Shown here: positions 1,861 through 13,917 of the stretch, piece after piece
Layout: the number at the start of each line of letters is the position of its first letter
Numbering within the stretch: position 1 is the stretch's first letter
Origin: Candidatus Pacearchaeota archaeon
Lineage (GTDB): Archaea > Nanobdellota > Nanobdellia > Pacearchaeales > GW2011-AR1
DNA: 47,408 nucleotides
Reading direction: 5' to 3'
NCBI GenBank assembly: GCA_018304145.1
Contig: JAGVWU010000002.1
Coordinates: forward strand, 1-47,408
Notes under the pieces: generated by a model
Seen by the model: only the letters and a program-made list of their open reading frames with translations
What the model was told of the DNA's origin: nothing
The model's database searches: none
Program-made: the position numbers and the translations under genes

Positions 1861-2538
1861 ATGTTAGAAAATATTTTAGGTATGTTCAATAGCTTAGCAA
1901 ATTATATATCAAATACTTTGAATCAGTCGAGTTTGTTAATAGGAATCATTGTCTATGCTGCATTTATTTTAATATATTCTGGATTTTTTTGGAATTTTAA
2001 TAAGATTGTTTCAAAAAAGGATTTTTATGCAAGCTTTATTCAGAATTATTTTGATGAGAAAAATGAAGGTTTTAAAAAATTAATAGGGGGAATTTTAAAA
2101 CTTATAAAATATATAATAGTATTTCCCGCAGTAATATTGTTCTGGTTTTTGGTATTTGCATTATTTCTTTTGTTTCTTTCAAAAAACAATGAAATTTCAA
2201 AGGTTCTTTTGATAAGTGCTTCGATGATTATTGCAATAAGAATTTTGGCATTTTCAGAAGAAAATTTGTCTAGAAATGTTGCAAAGATAATACCTCTTAC
2301 ACTTTTAGCAATTTTTATAATTAACCCCAGTTTTTCAGACTTAGCTGGTTTTTTGGATAAACTGTCTTTAGTAAAAGATTTGATTAATAGTTCTTTGAAC
2401 CTGATGATTTTTATTTTTATAACTGAAGTGGTTTTAAGAATACTGAATCAAACTTCAAAAACCTTAAGAAATTTTAGTGAAAAAAGAAGTGAAAAGATTT
2501 TGATAAAGAGACCTGTCAAGAAGATTAAGAGAAATTAA
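1861..2538 (+). CDS. hypothetical multi-pass membrane protein
   Basis: About 5 hydrophobic segments in 225 aa. Confidence 0.75.
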   Translation: MLENILGMFNSLANYISNTLNQSSLLIGIIVYAAFILIYSGFFWNFNKIVSKKDFYASFIQNYFDEKNEGFKKLIGGILKLIKYIIVFPAVILFWFLVFALFLLFLSKNNEISKVLLISASMIIAIRILAFSEENLSRNVAKIIPLTLLAIFIINPSFSDLAGFLDKLSLVKDLINSSLNLMIFIFITEVVLRILNQTSKTLRNFSEKRSEKILIKRPVKKIKRN

Positions 2539-4454
2539 AACTTAAAATTATGCACCCTTATATCTGGAGACAACAGATAAACCCTGTCTGTTTTGCCCCT
2601 CAATCCCCTATAAACTCTTTGCAATAATTCTCTTTTTGCCTTATCCATATAAAAGCTCATAAAATAAGAGGGCTTATTTTTTTTAAATATCTTCCAAAAA
2701 ATTTCAGATATGTTGGGGTAAGGAAATCTTGTTATAACAATGCTATTGCACAGGTCTCCTGGAAAATCTATCCCCCTGTTGCATTTTGTTGTGAATAAAA
2801 CATTTATTTTTTTATCTTTAAAATCTTTTATTCTTTTTCCAAATGGATCATTGGTTTGTTCGTTGATAAGCTGTTCTTGTGTTGGAAGATTTTCTAAATT
2901 CAAACTTATTTTTTCACTTTCATTGGGCAAATCTGAAAAACTATTTACATGAACCAAAACCGGTTTCTTTGCACAGGATAAACATTTTGAAAGTGAGTTA
3001 AGATACTGCTCTCTGGTTGTCAAGCCTTTTTTAAAACTTTCATAACTGCAATCAAGCTCATATCCATACCTGCAATTTATTAACTCTCCCTGATGGCTTG
3101 TCTCTGCTTCAATTATTTTAAATTTTTCCAAGCCAAAAATATTTTTTAAAACATTTTCAGAATGAATTGTTCCGGACATTAAAATAAAAACTTTATTTTT
3201 TTCAACTAACTCCTTGAATCTTTTTTCAAGATTAGTGGTTACAAGATTTATTATTAAATCATTTTCTTTTTTACTCATTGAAAAAAATGTTTCGTCAATA
3301 AAATCTTCAAATATTTTGGCAACTTTGTAAAGATGATTGATGTAATTTAATTCTTCATCTAATTCATCTACAATTTCTGGATTATTTAGCATTATCTGCA
3401 ATAATTCTTCAATTAAAGTATTTTTAAGTTCAAATATTTCATTTGAATCTTTTAATTTATTTGAAACCTTAATCGCATTGACTGTGTCTGTTAATTCTTG
3501 AACTGAATTGATAACCTGGGGGTTTTTTGAGTAGATATTATTCAATGAAAACAGCAGTCTGTTAAGATTTATCTGCTCTTCATTTGAAAAATTGTCTAAA
3601 AAATCATCACATTCATCAATTATTTCTAGTTCAGTGCTGGGCTTTCTGTTTAAAATAGATTCAACAATATATTTTGCGCTGTTGAATATTATTACATCTG
3701 CATCTGCATAAGACTCATATTGTTCATAATAAGGGCAGCCTTTTGTTCTTAGATATAAGGAAAATCTCCTGTTATTTAGTCCGGAATAATTTATTTTTTT
3801 AGAGTCTTTAAATTTTCTAAGCTCTATTTCTTCGGGAAATAAAGGAGACCAATATGGGCAGACCGGAGCTATCGTCATTCTTTTTATGTCGGTTATAGAA
3901 TCAAAATCCCTAAAATCTACTGAAGGATTCTGCCTAATATAATCTTTTAGTATATTAATATTTTTTTCCTTAATCTCTATTTTGCATGGAATAAAATGGT
4001 TATCGCAGGAAATTTCATTTTTTGCTGCAAAATTTTTTCTATGAACCTGATTCGGTTCAAAAATCTCGGTCAATATTGCATTGGTTTCTTTTATTTTTGG
4101 TTCTAGAATTTTGGAATTTTCCTCTAAAAATTTGCATTTAAAATTTTTTCTTCCAACTATTGAAGAAATTTTAAGTTTTTTTCCATTATGAAGGATATAT
4201 TTTTTGCTTGTATAATCGTTTTTATACTGCTCCTGAAGATTTTTTATTGGAACAACTATAGAAGTTTTTCCAAGATGCCTTGCGAGATTCAGTGCAATGG
4301 CACTTTTGCCTGTTCCACACTGCCCTTTAATAAAAATTATCTTATATCCTTCTTTTATAGAATCTAAAACCTCTTTAACAACATCTGCCTGAGTTTTTCC
4401 ATTTGAAAAAACCAAAGGTTTAAGCTCTTTTTCATCTTCAAATAATGACCACAT
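2535..4454 (-). CDS. Rad3/XPD/DinG-like SF2 helicase
   Basis: Walker A GQCGTGKS, GRKNFKC, CPYY, DECD, MSGT, RGIDFPG, QRVYRGLR. Confidence 0.88.
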   Translation of the reverse strand: MWSLFEDEKELKPLVFSNGKTQADVVKEVLDSIKEGYKIIFIKGQCGTGKSAIALNLARHLGKTSIVVPIKNLQEQYKNDYTSKKYILHNGKKLKISSIVGRKNFKCKFLEENSKILEPKIKETNAILTEIFEPNQVHRKNFAAKNEISCDNHFIPCKIEIKEKNINILKDYIRQNPSVDFRDFDSITDIKRMTIAPVCPYWSPLFPEEIELRKFKDSKKINYSGLNNRRFSLYLRTKGCPYYEQYESYADADVIIFNSAKYIVESILNRKPSTELEIIDECDDFLDNFSNEEQINLNRLLFSLNNIYSKNPQVINSVQELTDTVNAIKVSNKLKDSNEIFELKNTLIEELLQIMLNNPEIVDELDEELNYINHLYKVAKIFEDFIDETFFSMSKKENDLIINLVTTNLEKRFKELVEKNKVFILMSGTIHSENVLKNIFGLEKFKIIEAETSHQGELINCRYGYELDCSYESFKKGLTTREQYLNSLSKCLSCAKKPVLVHVNSFSDLPNESEKISLNLENLPTQEQLINEQTNDPFGKRIKDFKDKKINVLFTTKCNRGIDFPGDLCNSIVITRFPYPNISEIFWKIFKKNKPSYFMSFYMDKAKRELLQRVYRGLRGKTDRVYLLSPDIRVHNFKF

Positions 4455-4467
4455 TTTAAAATAGAGG

Positions 4468-5472
4468 TTAAAGAGAGTTTATAACAATTCTTGTTGTTAA
4501 TTTATAGGTATCTGCCCATTTTGCGTAGGCATTCCAGCCATTAAAACTTTTGATAAATTTTTCATAAGAAATTTTTTTATTTTTAAACAAATCAATTTTT
4601 TTCCTAATTTTTTTAATATTTCTTTTTCTTAATAAACTAAAATAATAAAAATTCCTAAAACCTACAAAATCTATGCCTTTTGATAATAAAATAATTTTAG
4701 ATTTGTCTGGATGTAGTTCGAGTTTTAGCTTTTCTTTTAAAAATTCATTAATTTGCTGCTTCCAAATTTCTAGTTGTAATTTTGATTTATGCAAAATTAC
4801 AAAATCATCTACATACCTTATATAATATTTTGCTTTTAATTTATACTTAACAAAATAATCCAGTTCATTTAAATAAACATTAGCAAAAAATTGAGATGTT
4901 AAATTTCCAAGAGGCATGCCTTTTCCATTAATTTTAGAATCAAAGTTATTTAATATTTTCTCAATAAGCCAAATTACTTTTTCATCTTGAATTTTTCTTT
5001 TTAGAAGATTAACTAAAATCTCCTGACTGACTTCATCAAAATAATGTTTAATATCTGCTTTTAGACAATAAGCATTTTTACTATGATTCTTAGTAACTTT
5101 TCTTAAAAAATAATAAAATCGTTTAATAGCAAATAAATTTCCCTTGCCTTTTCTATTTGCACAAGAATCGTAAATAAACAATCTTTCAAAAACAGGTTCA
5201 ATTATATTAATAATTGCATGATGCACTATTCTGTCTCTAAATGCAGATTTAGAAATTTTTCTTGTCTTTGGATCTCTTAAAATAAAGGTTACAAGAGGTT
5301 TTGGTTGATAAGTCTCAGTTATTAATTCCTTTTGCAATTGAAATAAATTTCCAATAACGTCCTTTTCAAATTCAATTACATATGACATTTTTGTTTTCCC
5401 TTTTCTTGCTTTACGCCAGGCAAGAAGAAGGTTGCTCATATTGTAAATCTCCGAATATAAGTTCTCTTTCAT
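4468..5472 (-). CDS. DGR reverse transcriptase
   Basis: FRDRIVHHA, KADIKHYF, GMPLGNLTSQFFAN (DGR-type SQ motif), YIRYVDDF; 334 aa with no maturase/endonuclease extension; adjacent TR/VR pair. Confidence 0.96.
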   Translation of the reverse strand: MKENLYSEIYNMSNLLLAWRKARKGKTKMSYVIEFEKDVIGNLFQLQKELITETYQPKPLVTFILRDPKTRKISKSAFRDRIVHHAIINIIEPVFERLFIYDSCANRKGKGNLFAIKRFYYFLRKVTKNHSKNAYCLKADIKHYFDEVSQEILVNLLKRKIQDEKVIWLIEKILNNFDSKINGKGMPLGNLTSQFFANVYLNELDYFVKYKLKAKYYIRYVDDFVILHKSKLQLEIWKQQINEFLKEKLKLELHPDKSKIILLSKGIDFVGFRNFYYFSLLRKRNIKKIRKKIDLFKNKKISYEKFIKSFNGWNAYAKWADTYKLTTRIVINSL

Positions 5473-5480
5473 TATTAAAA

Positions 5481-5714
5481 TTCTGGTAGCGAGAACTATT
5501 CTGAAAAGAGAGCCATCATCATTGTTGAGGTTCCTGTTGTTGCAATTGAAGTTGGACCTGTTGCCATGCCCAATGCTATTGAGCCAACATTAGTAGCACT
5601 TTTGCCTTTACATCACTGAAGCTTCTCGCAAGAACCTTCTGTATTTTATAGCTTAAATTCAAGTAAAATATGCGCTGACAAAAGAGCATGTAGTTCTGGT
5701 AGCTACCAGAACTA
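5481..5714 (-). ncRNA. putative TR-containing RNA with structured 5' leader
   Basis: TATA-like TTTTTAAA at about 5734-5741 (minus), perfect 24-bp palindrome 5691-5714, hairpins 5642-5670 and 5618-5639, 3' flank 5481-5498 complementary to the 5' end. Confidence 0.6.
5497..5587 (-). repeat. DGR template repeat (TR)
   Basis: 91 nt, non-coding; in the VR frame it reads WLNSIGHGNRSNFNCNNRNLNNDDGSLFRI with 9 AAY codons; 76/91 identical to 5990-6080. Confidence 0.95.
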
Positions 5715-5797
5715 ATAATTAAAAGAAATGAAGTTTAAAAATTCTTGTAAAAGAATTTTTAATCCCATTCAAATTTTACAATTTGAAGTTTTAAAAA

Positions 5798-6634
5798 TTA
5801 TTGTTTTGCAAATTGCATTAATCCTAAGATAAGTTCTTCAAGTTTTCCTGCTTGCAAAGTTCCTAATTTTCCTTCTTTTATTCCTTGGGCAGTTTCTAAA
5901 AAAGAATTTAATTGTTCTTGAGTATAAGGCAAAGCCCGCATTTCTTTTGGAGAAATTTTTTGCGCGCCTTCGGCGCTTTTCTTACCACGTACCCTGAAAA
6001 GAGAGCCAAGATCATAGTAGAGGTCCCAGTAGTCGCAATAGAAGTTGGACCTGCCGCCATGCCCAATGCAATCGAGCCAAAAACTCCTTGCATAATCTTT
6101 TGATTGAATTGGAAGAAGGTAAAAAGTTACTTCCCGAATTCCTGTTTTATTTTTTAAGAACAAACCAGATTCTTTTGCAAGTTTTTTGCTTCTTGCTAAA
6201 AATACTATTCCATTATCATCTGCAAATGAATCTGTTGGAACATTATGTGTTTTGGTTTTTCCTAAATTTATTACTCTTTTTTTATAAGTAGGTCTTGCTG
6301 TATCTTGCTCGGCTATTTCTAAAATCACTTCTGTTGCAGCTCTTCCATTTAAAAGAATATCTGGAGTTAAATAAAATTCTCTATTATTTTTATGAGCATC
6401 AACTGCTGTTTGAGCATAAGGAATCAAAGGATTAAATTCAGCCAAAGCTCCATAAATATTTCCCTGGATGCAACTAAAGCTTTCAGTTGTCCAAGCTCCT
6501 GGATAACAAACATCTGAATCAACTCCTTGCTTAATTCTTTCTTTTAATAAATCTCTTGCTGTTGCAGGTTTTCCTTCTGAACTTGCTTTTTCATAAGCAA
6601 CTGCAAAATTTCCTGTTTGTCGTTCTAGTGCCAT
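5798..6634 (-). CDS. DGR target protein (variable region WLDCIGHGGRSNFYCDYWDLYYDLGSLFRV; probably CLec-like fold)
   Basis: Contains the VR in frame; fold assignment is inferred from DGR precedent only. Confidence 0.9.
   Translation of the reverse strand: MALERQTGNFAVAYEKASSEGKPATARDLLKERIKQGVDSDVCYPGAWTTESFSCIQGNIYGALAEFNPLIPYAQTAVDAHKNNREFYLTPDILLNGRAATEVILEIAEQDTARPTYKKRVINLGKTKTHNVPTDSFADDNGIVFLARSKKLAKESGLFLKNKTGIREVTFYLLPIQSKDYARSFWLDCIGHGGRSNFYCDYWDLYYDLGSLFRVRGKKSAEGAQKISPKEMRALPYTQEQLNSFLETAQGIKEGKLGTLQAGKLEELILGLMQFAKQ
5964..5976 (-). promoter_or_regulatory. DGR homing hairpin GCGCC-GAA-GGCGC
   Basis: All-GC 5-bp stem with 3-nt GAA loop, 13 nt 3' of the VR and absent after the TR. 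Confidence 0.8.
5990..6080 (-). repeat. DGR variable repeat (VR)
   Basis: 15 mismatches to the TR: 7 A>T, 7 A>G, 1 G>C (sense strand). Confidence 0.95.
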
Positions 6635-6733: not shown

Positions 6734-7501
6734 TTAATTTGTAAATGCTTTTGTTTGCTCGCAGTATTTTCCAAACTCACACCATTTGCATAAAGGGCTT
6801 GGAGAAGCAGGATAAATTGTTGTAGATTCTATTTTATTTATCAGGTTTATAATATCCTGCTTCAGGCTTTCCAGCTGCTCTTCTGTTCTTTTTGAAATCA
6901 TTTTTTGATTAAAATCAAGAAAATGCCAGATTAAATGAACATCTGATGCATTAAATTCTTTTCTTATTCCTATAGAATACAAGGCTAACTGCCGGTCTTT
7001 GTTTAATTCCTCTTGAGTTTTTATTGAACCGGTTTTATAGTCATGAATCTCAAAAATATTAGATTCATTATTATGAACAAGCCTGTCAATATAACCCTGA
7101 AGCATATATTTTCCATCATTATTTAGGTCTATTGTCACCTGATGCTCTATTGCTATTGTATTATCCAAAAAAGGATAATTTTTAATAAAGTAATCTATTA
7201 AAAACTTGATTCCTTTGTCAAAATAATATTCAAAAGTCAGATTAGTGTTGACAATTTTTATTTCTTCTTTAAAATCTCTTTTCCAAGATTTTGCATAGTA
7301 TTCTATTGCATCTTCTAGCTGCAGATTTCGCTTTTCAAGAATTTTTAAATATAACCATTCTAAAGTTTCATGCACTTTTTCTCCCAAATATGCCTCTATT
7401 GTACATTCTATTTCAGGAGTCAATTTATCAATGTATCTGAATTTAAATTTTAATGGGCATTGTTCAAAAGCAGAGATTCTTGAATGTGAATAGATTGTCA
7501 T
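6734..7501 (-). CDS. PD-(D/E)XK nuclease, RecB/AddB/Cas4-like with probable Fe-S cluster
   Basis: SHSRISAFEQCP, GEKVH, GYIDRL, HDYKTG, QLALY, C-terminal CKWC..C. Confidence 0.9.
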   Translation of the reverse strand: MTIYSHSRISAFEQCPLKFKFRYIDKLTPEIECTIEAYLGEKVHETLEWLYLKILEKRNLQLEDAIEYYAKSWKRDFKEEIKIVNTNLTFEYYFDKGIKFLIDYFIKNYPFLDNTIAIEHQVTIDLNNDGKYMLQGYIDRLVHNNESNIFEIHDYKTGSIKTQEELNKDRQLALYSIGIRKEFNASDVHLIWHFLDFNQKMISKRTEEQLESLKQDIINLINKIESTTIYPASPSPLCKWCEFGKYCEQTKAFTN

Positions 7502-10974: not shown

Positions 10975-11793
10975 CTACAAGCTATCAAAAGGGCTAGAAA
11001 TCTTCTTCAATTCCGTCGATGAAACATGAGTATACCGCTCAGTCGTGGTGAGCGAACTATGTCCGAGTAAGAGTTGTATCTTTCTAATATCCGTTCCATT
11101 TTCCAATAAATGGGTAGCGTATGAATGTCTTAATGTGTGGCAGTGCACATGTTTATTTATTCCGGCTTTGATTGCTGCTTTCTGAATTATTTTTTGAATA
11201 TTGCGTGTTGTTAGAGGTTTTACCTCTGAAAAAACATATTTCCAATTTTTTCTTTTTTCCAGATACTTTTTTAATTTGCTGGACAATTTTTTTGCTAATA
11301 TAATCATCCTGTCTTTCTTTCCTTTACCACTTCTTACCCAACCAGTGTTTTCATTGAGATCTAAATCACCTGGTTTTAGGTTCACTAATTCTGATACTCG
11401 AAGTCCTGAAGAATAGAGCATCTGCATTATTAATCTAGATTTTTTTGTGAAGGCAGTATCAATTAATTTAATCACTTCTTCTTTTGTTAAAACTGTTGGA
11501 ATTTTTTTTTCGTTTTTTGGGCGTTTGACTCCAGAGGTAGGATCTTTTCCAAGCAAATTAGTATATGCAAATTTAATAGATGATAAAAATAAAATGTTTG
11601 AAATAGGTGCTTTATCTGACATCTTGTCAGCTAAAAACAACTTCACATCCGGTTGTTCAATTTCCTCAGGTTGTTTGTTTAAATGTTCCAACAGCTGTTT
11701 GTTAAACAACAGATAGTTCCTTAAAGTATAGGGTGATAATTTAGATATTTTTATTTCTGTTTCAAGGCGCTTGAGAAATTCTTGAGGAGTCAT
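10975..11793 (-). CDS. xerA: XerA/XerD-like tyrosine recombinase
   Basis: SGLRVSEL, GKGKKDR, HTLRHSYATHLLE, LLGHSS, catalytic RYTHV; N-terminal SAM-like domain. Confidence 0.9.
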   Translation of the reverse strand: MTPQEFLKRLETEIKISKLSPYTLRNYLLFNKQLLEHLNKQPEEIEQPDVKLFLADKMSDKAPISNILFLSSIKFAYTNLLGKDPTSGVKRPKNEKKIPTVLTKEEVIKLIDTAFTKKSRLIMQMLYSSGLRVSELVNLKPGDLDLNENTGWVRSGKGKKDRMIILAKKLSSKLKKYLEKRKNWKYVFSEVKPLTTRNIQKIIQKAAIKAGINKHVHCHTLRHSYATHLLENGTDIRKIQLLLGHSSLTTTERYTHVSSTELKKISSPFDSL

Positions 11794-12457: not shown

Positions 12458-12787
12458 TTAGAATTCTTCCTGATTTTGAGATTTTTTGTTTCTGAAACAA
12501 TCTCTGCACAGAACTGGTTTTCCTTCAACTGGCTTGAAAGGAACTTCGCATTCTTGCTTGCATTCTGCGCAAACAGCTTTATGCATTTCTCTCTCTCGTC
12601 TTCTAAATTGAGGTCTTCCAAAAGATCTTCTTGGTCTTGATTTTTTAAAACAATCATTACATCTGACAGGCCTTCCTTCTTTAGGTTCAAAAGGAACTTC
12701 ACATTCCTGGCCACAATCAGAACAAATTGCTTTATAGCTTACTCGACTTAAAGAATCTTCAGAACTATCGTCTTGAAATCTTCCCAT
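12458..12787 (-). CDS. tandem CxxC-x17-CxxC zinc-ribbon protein
   Basis: CSDCGQECEVPFEPKEGRPVRCNDCF and CAECKQECEVPFKPVEGKPVLCRDCF. Confidence 0.9.
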   Translation of the reverse strand: MGRFQDDSSEDSLSRVSYKAICSDCGQECEVPFEPKEGRPVRCNDCFKKSRPRRSFGRPQFRRREREMHKAVCAECKQECEVPFKPVEGKPVLCRDCFRNKKSQNQEEF

Positions 12788-13422: not shown

Positions 13423-13917
13423 ATGAATTTTAGGAAGCTTTGCTAACCTAAAATTCTGACATAGGTTGTTAATGTTAATTCTCAATTAGATGGGGCTTCA
13501 GAGGGTTGTTATGGAGAGTAATAAAATATAAATAGAGGAGATTATTGTTGGATAAGTATAGAAAATGATGCTTATAATGATTTAATTAATGCATTTCATG
13601 GCAAGGTTTACAGAAATAAAGATGGAACTCTTACTTATGAATTTGATGAATCTATGACACATCAGAGGTTTGGAAGAGATGGTAATGTTGGACCAACATT
13701 TTTAGTTTTTAAAGAAACTAATAGAGTTACAGGACAAGAAACATATTTAGATATTCAGTCACTTTGGACTTTGCAAGGACTTGAACTTGTAGCAGATGAA
13801 TCAGAGCTTGCAAAACTTGATCCAGTTGCAGCTGAAGAAGCAAGAACTCATTATTTAAGAGTTGATGGAACTTACATGATTAGAAAATTGGAAATTTTAG
13901 CAAGGCATGGGCGCTAA
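13423..13917 (+). pseudogene. probable 5'-degraded gene; ORF 13654-13917 is its intact 3' part
   Basis: Frame is open and protein-like from 13525; same frame has an ATG at 13423 and stops at 13444, 13462, 13519, 13522. Confidence 0.4.

Follow-up and report, generated by a model that had tools for sequence, protein, structure and literature searches.

The 47,408-nt stretch analysed here (contig JAGVWU010000002.1 of assembly GCA_018304145.1, from Candidatus Pacearchaeota archaeon; hereafter the window) carries on its minus strand a genuine, structurally intact diversity-generating retroelement (DGR). We consider it probable that this is a chromosomal DGR of a small-genome archaeon, belonging to a known nanoarchaeal class, in which an RNA situated upstream of the template, RT-16, docks the end of the template repeat (TR). 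The element itself is ordinary, being one more copy of a very common archaeal DGR class; what is new here is a second, remote variable repeat (VR), the lack of the accessory protein Avd in the class, the position of RT-16 abutting the TR and the covarying helices that join RT-16 with the TR end. Read along the minus strand, the order is target open reading frame (ORF) 6634..5798, TR 5587..5497 and reverse transcriptase (RT) ORF 5472..4468, with the following parts:

Positions 5798–6634, minus strand: target gene, 278 aa, with a predicted AvpA-like C-type-lectin fold and a two-helix C-terminal tail (ORF, AlphaFold and Foldseek).
Positions 5990–6080, minus strand: VR1, the variable repeat, with 15 differences from the TR, 14 of them at TR adenines.
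Positions 5990–6007, minus strand: initiation of mutagenic homing sequence (IMH), the invariant 3′ end of the VR, GGGU against GAAU in the TR (alignment, second VR and related loci; PMC4372165).
Positions 5964–5976, minus strand: GC hairpin with a GAA loop, encoding part of the peptide SAEGAQ (DNA fold; GRA-loop hairpins are described in PMC4372165).
Positions 5497–5587, minus strand: TR, the template repeat, with 29 A and nine AAY codons, and with the IMH* (GAAU, 5501..5498) at its 3′ end.
Positions 4468–5472, minus strand: DGR reverse transcriptase, 334 aa (Pfam RVT_1, 1.8e-23; closest solved relative bRT, 8UB7).

The TR (5587..5497) and VR1 (6080..5990) align without gaps over 91 nt of the minus strand, and 14 of their 15 differences lie at adenines of the TR (seven A>G, seven A>T and no A>C), the sole exception being a G>C change at 5517/6010. 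An initial annotation, made from the letters alone, had given this alignment with the same number of differences, adenines (29 of the 91 TR positions) and in-frame AAY codons (nine), and our recount agrees on every figure. The changed codons of VR1 yield Y four times, W, C, D three times, G and L, so the residue gains that it listed (four Y, W, C and D) are also correct. Except for a pair at the 3′ end, all adenine changes in VR1 fall on codon positions 1 or 2, which amounts to 12 of the 12 true changes. With A at 29 of 91 positions, the probability of finding at least 14 of 15 changes at A by chance is 1.2e-6. The pair at the 3′ end consists of A>G changes at 5500 and 5499; because both recur in the second VR (VR2, see below), and because the TR ends in AAU and the VR in GGU across related loci (22 of 25, the 22 being those with the TR end placed correctly), these two changes represent a fixed difference between IMH* and IMH and did not arise by mutagenesis. 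When they are set aside, 12 of 13 changes are at A (P 5.7e-6).

We also considered whether the likeness of TR and VR could come from an ordinary duplication or gene conversion followed by divergence that is biased to A by chance, in a genome that is AT-rich (29.6 % GC) and with a TR in which A is the commonest base. This is extremely improbable, since P is around 1e-6 for each VR, the changes run from TR to VR and concern codon positions 1 and 2 of AAY codons, a DGR-type RT is adjacent, and the same pattern appears in 26 of 29 related loci.

VR1 corresponds to codons 185–215 of the 278 codons of the target, in the 3′ part of the gene. The hairpin, with a 5-bp GC stem and a GAA loop (5976..5964), starts 14 nt past the VR and is still inside the target ORF, and counterparts with G/C stems and 3-nt loops occur in most related loci. 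The IMH/IMH* pair, GGGU in the VR and GAAU in the TR, is the same for VR1 and VR2. The element thus contains the features by which DGRs are recognized: the RT motifs, the adenine-restricted differences between TR and VR, a VR in the 3′ part of a gene, the IMH/IMH* pair and the hairpin. With a DGR-type RT alongside, these features bear out the initial interpretation of the locus as a product of DGR mutagenic retrohoming.

The RT starts 24 nt downstream of the TR. It had been annotated as intact with motifs LTSQ and YVDD, and its ORF is indeed open from 5472 to 4468 and includes both LGNLTSQ, which fits the DGR signature [I/V/L]GxxxSQ, and YVDD. The protein aligns end to end with the RT of a Bordetella phage, bRT (PDB 8UB7; residues 3–327 to 6–317, E 1.2e-45), and the alignment to this relative of solved structure leaves no extra domain in the window RT. 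Matches to RTs of group II introns (2e-21) and retrons (E 1e-20) are far weaker than the match to bRT (1e-45). Residues R74 and I181 of bRT promote adenine mutagenesis, and [I/V/L]GxxxSQ is described as a DGR motif (PMC7826257); the window RT has Arg and Leu, respectively, at these two positions. Judged from its sequence, the RT is bRT-like and belongs to the DGR clade.

Contig C16 of the same genome holds a fragment of a further RT gene (4818–4994, corresponding to RT residues 272–330, 64 % identity, with one internal TAA) between the genes for a TYW3 methyltransferase and FtsZ, which is probably a remnant of a second DGR. Many RT matches across the order comprise only residues 3–180 or 130–330, or contain internal stops; decayed or truncated RT copies seem to be frequent in these small genomes, and contig ends may explain some of them.

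A genome-wide search for further VRs, which the initial annotation had suggested, was run with the TR and identified VR2 on contig C12 (4173–4259, minus strand), inside the gene for a paralogue of the target (237 aa, 79 % identity). Neither VR2 nor the RT-16 RNA had been noted in the initial annotation. VR2 differs from the TR at 16 positions, of which 15 are A (13 A>G and two A>T; P 4e-7). Upstream of the VR, 494 of 554 positions are identical between the two target genes, while VR1 and VR2 differ at 15 of the 29 TR-A positions and at two of the 62 other positions. Because the differences between VR1 and VR2 concentrate at TR-A, the two VRs were overwritten from the same TR, independently, after the genes had diverged. 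The DGR has been active in the past in this lineage, and one TR serves two genes in a genome of about 1.15 Mb, with the second VR unlinked to the cassette. The paralogue on C12 has no C-terminal tail, and the hairpin there has one weakened pair. In this region (C12, 3615–4813), an IS200-type Y1 transposase gene (Pfam 1.3e-24) is found directly after the paralogue on the opposite strand, with a short palindrome at the junction, and its insertion seems to have replaced the two-helix tail of the paralogue.

DGRs had been called common in DPANN archaea, and this is borne out for the order, where 164 of 401 genomes contain a relative of the window RT at an E-value of at most 1e-20, including 37 of the 86 genomes of best quality and 14 of the 20 in the genus. 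The 29 best RT loci (L013–L041) were examined in detail. A TR/VR pair was found in 26 of them, with a TR of 62–96 nt that ends 14–89 nt before the RT start and a VR situated 308–480 nt upstream; among the others, L021 has too little upstream DNA, and no pair was found in L024 and L025. Over the 26 loci, 354 of 375 differences between TR and VR are at TR-A, a proportion that is biased upward because TR adenines were scored as matches in the search. A target homologue is detectable with the window target in only one of the 29 loci (L026), and the flanking genes are not kept, so that RT, RNA and TR form a conserved core whose targets and sites vary.

The window DGR is a member of the described nanoarchaeal DGR class. 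The DGRs of Nanoarchaeota reported by Paul et al. (2015, PMC4372165) have a GGGGU-type IMH against a GGAAU IMH* and GRA-loop hairpins inside the target gene; as in the window, they are archaeal and chromosomal, follow the order target, TR and RT, and show a hairpin with a three-base GRA loop within the target gene. The window form of the IMH, AGGGU against AGAAU, is one base off the published GGGGU/GGAAU.

The DGR had also been annotated as complete, which holds for its core parts, all of them intact, and fails for Avd, although the whole class is without it. Between the target and the RT there is no ORF of at least 40 aa, the longest being a 37-aa frame inside RT-16. No conserved ORF was found between the RT-16 start and the RT start in 28 loci, where the longest closed ORF has a median of 26.5 aa and reaches 60 aa in two. 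Paul et al. (2015, PMC4372165) put forward small ORFs between target and RT as possible stand-ins for Avd, on isoelectric point and size alone, whereas in the window this interval contains RT-16 and no conserved ORF. The sole match to PF05635, the Avd family, in the genome is on contig C4 (around 13485–13760), an Avd/23S-IVS-family four-helix-bundle gene with two frameshifts that follows an adjoining tRNA gene and precedes an AbrB/RelE-like, toxin-antitoxin-like ORF pair, with no RT adjacent. PF05635 is found in 33 of the 401 genomes of the order, in none of the 20 in the genus and in one (G034) of the 29 genomes behind the best RT loci. In G034, G014, G139 and G310, a weak Avd match occurs some 300–460 nt upstream, on the same strand, of an RT that is only 45–47 % identical to the window RT; because Avd adjoins these distant RTs, a second, Avd-bearing DGR class coexists in the order. 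Across DGRs at large, Wu et al. (2018, PMC5758913) report Avd in 74 %, call avd "very poorly conserved", find no accessory genes in 75 of 372 DGRs and suggest Avd-independent homing. Their architecture A resembles the window in that its TR-RT core is accompanied by none of the genes avd, HRDC, MSL and CH1; the accessible text of that study proposes no RNA element for such DGRs, in which it differs from what we describe. As far as gene content can tell, the DGR class associated with RT-16 is a class without Avd, and we infer that the window DGR is independent of Avd.

The interval just upstream of the TR matches the Rfam motif RT-16 (RF03019; 5711..5588, 63.3 bits against a gathering score of 50, E 1.6e-7). 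The match spans model positions 1–158, with several inner stems shortened in the window copy, and its 3′ end is 1 nt before the TR; elsewhere, it ends at most 8 nt from the TR start in 24 of 26 loci. RT-16 scores above threshold in 27 of the 29 related loci (all except L023 and L025); in a sample from the phylum as a whole it occurs in 35 of 151 genomes, and none of 14 control genomes has it. To look for helices, 27 full-length RNAs, each beginning 20 nt ahead of RT-16 and extending as far as the RT start, were aligned with MAFFT, which is blind to structure, and this alignment was passed to RNAalifold. The helices obtained and the related features of the window are, from 5′ to 3′ of the RNA:

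Positions 5734–5741, minus strand: TATA-like box, putative archaeal promoter, about 29 nt before the RT-16 start.
Positions 5588–5711, minus strand: RT-16 RNA (RF03019; Rfam covariance model).
Positions 5702–5713, minus strand: 5′ arm of helix H1, which is also the 5′ arm of Rfam helix P1; pairs with 5479–5490.
Positions 5691–5697, minus strand: 5′ strand of helix H2, the proposed primer strand, ending in invariant A5691; pairs with 5498–5492.
Positions 5681–5687, minus strand: 5′ strand of helix P2, the proposed stop-helix strand; pairs with 5596–5602.
Positions 5596–5602, minus strand: 3′ strand of P2, ending 8 nt before the first TR base (covariation).
Positions 5492–5498, minus strand: 3′ strand of H2, formed by the last two TR bases and five spacer bases, directly 3′ of A5500/A5499 (alignment and covariation).
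Positions 5479–5490, minus strand: 3′ arm of H1, in the spacer after the TR; pairs with 5713–5702.

RNAalifold yields two helices, P2, which is part of the Rfam model, and H2, which is new. H2 pairs the four final bases of the P1 3′ arm and three linker bases with the bases directly after the GAA of IMH*. H2 and P2 together have 97.6 % of their 378 cells paired, against 82.3 % in shuffles, and none of 500 shuffles reaches the observed covariation score; as a control, sliding the partner strand by 1–3 columns leaves 21–54 % paired. Taken singly, H2 is 96.8 % and P2 98.4 % paired, each with four of seven pairs compensatory. At one pair of H2, 15 sequences have C-G and 12 have U-A, and none has a broken pair. 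A separate per-column table, which picks its helix before counting and is thereby circular for the fraction paired, was used solely to illustrate the variety of pair types. H2 is also present in the single-sequence minimum free energy (MFE) fold of 22 of the 27 RNAs, with a mean pair probability of 0.74 and over a span of more than 200 nt, and P2 in that of 18 of the 27.

The arms of H1 are out of register in the MAFFT alignment, and H1 was hence tested by comparing helix length between cognate and non-cognate arms. Using 22-nt windows, a helix of at least 8 bp was formed in 17 of the 27 cognate pairs and in 9.3 % of 702 non-cognate ones, and none of 5000 permutations reaches the observed mean length; with wider windows, 20 of 27 cognate pairs reached 8 bp against 31 % of the non-cognate ones. 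The 18 arms scoring at least 7 all differ in sequence, and in L028, L031 and L017 the arm is around 15 nt further upstream. On this comparative evidence, the alignments and cognate tests show the pairings H1, H2 and P2. The MFE fold of the window RNA (-66.1 kcal/mol, z -3.0) shows H1 lengthened to 18 bp, so that it takes in the RT start codon, and stacked on H2. The extended H1 (5471–5490) covers the RT start codon and the bases that precede it, and RNA folding for templating and RT translation might exclude each other.

A TATA-like word occurs 25–31 nt before the RT-16 start in 15 of the 27 loci, including the window; given that the genome is AT-rich, this box is a candidate promoter only. 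Pairing of a conserved AUAAAAU segment of RT-16 with IMH*, as primer and template, was also considered and was rejected, since no covariation was seen by eye.

In the mechanism that we propose, a transcript would begin near 5713 and run through RT-16, the TR and the RT ORF. Helix H2 (5697–5691 with 5498–5492) would dock the 3′ end of the TR onto RT-16, with invariant A5691 as the counterpart of the Bordetella priming adenosine (Sp A56) and A5499 as the first templated base. The RT would then copy the TR, misincorporating opposite A, and would halt at P2, the 3′ strand of which ends 8 nt before the TR, while H1 (5713–5702 with 5490–5479) would clamp the whole fold, competing with the local P1 hairpin. 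The IMH and the GAA-loop hairpin would then guide the resulting cDNA to VR1 or VR2, which it would replace. In its most specific form, RT-16 would be the archaeal counterpart of the Bordetella spacer RNA, circularly permuted ahead of the template, that provides the primer strand, the P2 stop helix and loop closure by H1/H2 for an Avd-free, cis-primed, adenine-mutagenic RT; the alternation between P1 and H1/H2 would be an on/off switch for templating, and H1 might couple templating to RT translation. We advance this specific form tentatively and give it slightly less than even credence.

The comparison with phage BPP-1 is based on the preprint bioRxiv 10.1101/2023.10.23.563531, according to which spacer bases 47–56 pair with TR 117–129, priming is from A56 and templating begins at TR G117; beyond a gap of two bases in the spacer, its bases 59–70 pair with a segment of avd just upstream of the TR, named "cPRT Stop". 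Both of these strands are downstream of the TR, in a 140-nt spacer with an Avd-binding stem-loop, and Avd is essential. The window shares with BPP-1 a homologous RT that includes the adenine-mutagenesis residues, A-specific transfer, the IMH and IMH* sequences and a hairpin downstream of the VR. It also shares the RNA topology: the H2 strand ends in invariant A5691, paired to invariant U5498, and is followed by a linker (5690–5688, with C5690 and A5689 invariant and unpaired) and then by the P2 strand, whereas at the template end A5499 and A5500 are invariant and the partner of P2 ends 8 nt before the TR. In contrast to BPP-1, the bipartite strand of the window is upstream of the TR, in RT-16, and the downstream spacer has only 24 nt, which is too short for an Avd-binding stem-loop. 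The window element also lacks an Avd gene, has H1 as an additional outer helix, belongs to an archaeon instead of a phage and has a target other than a tail fibre. The same preprint examined 40 nt upstream and 100 nt downstream of the TR and reports complementarity between the two sides in 207 of 278 DGRs with Avd; it also mentions Nanoarchaeota. Weinberg et al. (2017, PMC5737381) described motifs RT-1 to RT-19 beside RT genes and guessed at a DGR link for some of them, but the sole motif for which they made such an assignment is RT-10, the BPP-1 spacer. The accessible descriptions of RT-16 state no role or partner for it; here it is directly 5′ of the TR, and its linker pairs with the TR end, which is outside the Rfam model. 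In the literature covered, which did not include Paul et al. (2017) or the supplements of the preprint, we found nothing that ties RT-16 or an upstream structured RNA to archaeal DGRs.

Several observations weigh against the reading that we prefer, some of which concern the RNA and its priming role and others Avd and present activity. Among the former, the fold of the hairpin after VR1 as DNA (-6 kcal/mol, z -0.9) is not significant by itself; H1 is not in its expected place in 7–10 of the 27 loci; the 27 RNAs share kinship, so that the shuffle controls overstate significance; H1/H2 and the local P1, which also covaries, are mutually exclusive; and the priming nucleotide, the first templated base and the role of P2 as a stop are proposed by analogy only. 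These points leave some room for the RNA as Rfam drew it, in which the local P1 and the RT-16 core would be only a handle for RT binding, H1/H2 a by-product of a duplicated arm, and priming would proceed in another way (target-primed or from the short spacer). A covariance model with the local P1 does score above threshold in those 27 of 29 loci, the 3′ arm of P1 and the arm after the TR are near-copies, so that either can pair with the 5′ arm, and H1 is weak or displaced in the 7–10 loci just mentioned. Nevertheless, H2 takes three linker bases from outside P1 and pairs directly after the invariant AA of the template, covaries in an alignment blind to structure without a broken pair at its C-G/U-A position and is found in most full-length MFE folds (22 of 27), and the order of primer strand, 3-nt linker and P2 strand matches the solved Bordetella arrangement. 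We therefore regard the Rfam form as unlikely, and docking of the TR end by RT-16 as the better account.

As to Avd, PF05635 may miss divergent Avd proteins, and the broken Avd-like gene on C4 could mean that a needed factor has been lost. As to activity, no present diversification of the VR is seen at the level of assembled contigs. Contigs from runs X9 (5236–6478), X10 (5041–6478) and X14 (5726–6634) have no differences to the window across VR1, these runs and X16 possibly sharing one site. In X16, identical contigs end at 5984 and the next piece belongs to a relative; this break (5984/5987), at the 3′ edge of the VR, could come from VR heterogeneity, from low depth (3–5x) or from the VR1/VR2 repeat. 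When contigs were recruited at 80 % likeness, the RT region was dominated by relatives from other organisms. In the 90 % protein cluster of the target, the VR residues are identical in five of six members, and the sixth carries D204E, which stems from a third-position change away from any TR adenine; outside the VR, three substitutions are seen in the cluster. Finally, a metagenome scan with the 27-nt 3′ flank of the VR gave one match, an unchanged VR2 locus, which carries little weight. Since contigs hide minority variants, their monomorphism limits the rate of turnover and is still compatible with activity.

The same facts invite the view that the cassette is a relic, which was once active and produced VR1 and VR2 and is now inert after losing an Avd-type cofactor. 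The two frameshifts in the Avd-like ORF of C4, the identity of VR1 in the three other runs and in five of six cluster members with a non-adenine change in the sixth, the loss of the tail of the second target beside the IS200-like transposase gene, and the C-terminal RT fragment on C16, which shows that DGRs decay in this genome, all agree with it. We nonetheless find it rather improbable, because the RT ORF is intact with all its catalytic and DGR motifs, the TR, IMH*, hairpin, RT-16, H1, H2 and P2 are all intact, and the C4 pseudogene adjoins a tRNA gene and toxin-antitoxin-like ORFs and not a DGR. Additionally, of the 20 genomes of the genus, 14 contain an RT relative and none contains Avd, which indicates that the class works, or at least persists, without PF05635.

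In the msr-msd RNA of retrons the structured part comes first and the template second, and flanking inverted repeats close the fold. The window RNA would share this order of RNA and template, the closing inverted repeats and a proposed 2′-OH priming beside the closing helix; priming from a 2′-OH is stated to proceed "as occurs in retrons" in the BPP-1 preprint (bioRxiv 10.1101/2023.10.23.563531). It would differ from retrons in that its RT is of the DGR clade, its product rewrites a gene and is not kept as multicopy single-stranded DNA (msDNA), and its proposed branch nucleotide is an A.

If true, the RNA model gives a role and a pairing partner to RT-16, an orphan Rfam motif, explains the conserved sequence of IMH* as a docking site for RNA and offers an explanation for the roughly one quarter to one third of DGRs that do without Avd. 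For the engineering of targeted mutagenesis, an RT with a 250-nt RNA and no protein cofactor would moreover provide a compact system to start from.

The target protein matches no family of Pfam or NCBIfam, and its 32 homologues are all without annotation, two of them from records named Candidatus Pacearchaeota archaeon. Together with the small genome and the replication genes of archaeal type, these record names point to a DPANN, Pacearchaeota-like host. The AlphaFold and Foldseek check recommended for it in the initial annotation was run. An AlphaFold model from 25 homologues has a mean pLDDT of 84.2, with segment 219–234 below 50, and in a Foldseek search of the PDB it gave one clear match, to AvpA (CLec) of Nanoarchaeota (5IOO; E 7.2e-7, probability 1.00; TM-score of 0.74 on the target, root-mean-square deviation of 3.4 Å over 228 alignment columns, 11 % identity). 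A sequence-profile search of the PDB with the target returned no matches, and the likeness to AvpA is thus one of fold only. The target is predicted to be a variable protein with an AvpA-like C-type-lectin fold. Like AvpA (Handa et al., 2016, PMC5006420; 5IOO), it would combine this fold with the lack of a signal peptide or other domain; in contrast to AvpA, to which it has no detectable sequence similarity, it has an extra two-helix tail of about 60 aa after the VR. In the predicted model, the hairpin-encoded SAEGAQ follows the VR and is in turn followed by helices H239–253 and H259–277. The target had been annotated as lacking a signal peptide or transmembrane helix; in agreement, it has no transmembrane-like segment (maximum Kyte-Doolittle mean over 19 residues, 0.79) and no hydrophobic N-terminus. 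It may be cytoplasmic, which fits its sequence. Archaeal DGR targets without transmembrane segments or other domains are reported by Roux et al. (2021, PMC8144416), who leave open whether they are truly not membrane proteins.

The window is contig C20 of a 1.15-Mb assembly of 70 contigs, with 29.6 % GC and an estimated completeness of 86.6 %. The initial description of the DGR as chromosomal agrees with the genes for ribosomal proteins, PolD, Cdc6/Orc1 and an aminoacyl-tRNA synthetase on the same contig. On one side of the cassette there are three ribosomal protein genes and tRNA-Leu within 4 kb (the contig encodes L18e/L15, L13 and S9), and on the other side the genes for Lhr helicase, PolD DP1/DP2 and Cdc6/Orc1. 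The immediate neighbours of the cassette are genes for a DinG/XPD-like helicase (Helicase_C_2; 2535–4454) and, on the other side, for a Cas4-like PD-(D/E)XK nuclease (6734–7501). Homologues of this helicase or nuclease were not found beside the 29 related RTs, so the flanking looks accidental.

DGRs are often phage-borne (Wu et al., 2018, PMC5758913; Roux et al., 2021, PMC8144416), the cassette has nuclease and helicase genes as flanks that are not conserved, and a XerC/D-like tyrosine recombinase gene (10975–11793) is a few kb away, all of which could speak for a DGR that is part of an integrated virus, plasmid or mobile island. This is very unlikely, because no virion genes (capsid, terminase or other) were found among the 43 ORFs scanned, the ribosomal protein and tRNA-Leu genes and the Lhr, PolD and Cdc6 genes stand on either side, and archaeal DGRs fall in a clade that is almost entirely cell-encoded (Roux et al., 2021, PMC8144416).

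No link to the DGR was seen for the recombinase gene, nor for a small ORF, also a few kb from the DGR (12458–12787), with two treble-clef zinc-finger repeats (PF23477, 5.6e-33). The aminoacyl-tRNA synthetase on the window contig is a class I enzyme of the W/Y type, and the contig additionally carries a gene for a TGS-domain GTPase.

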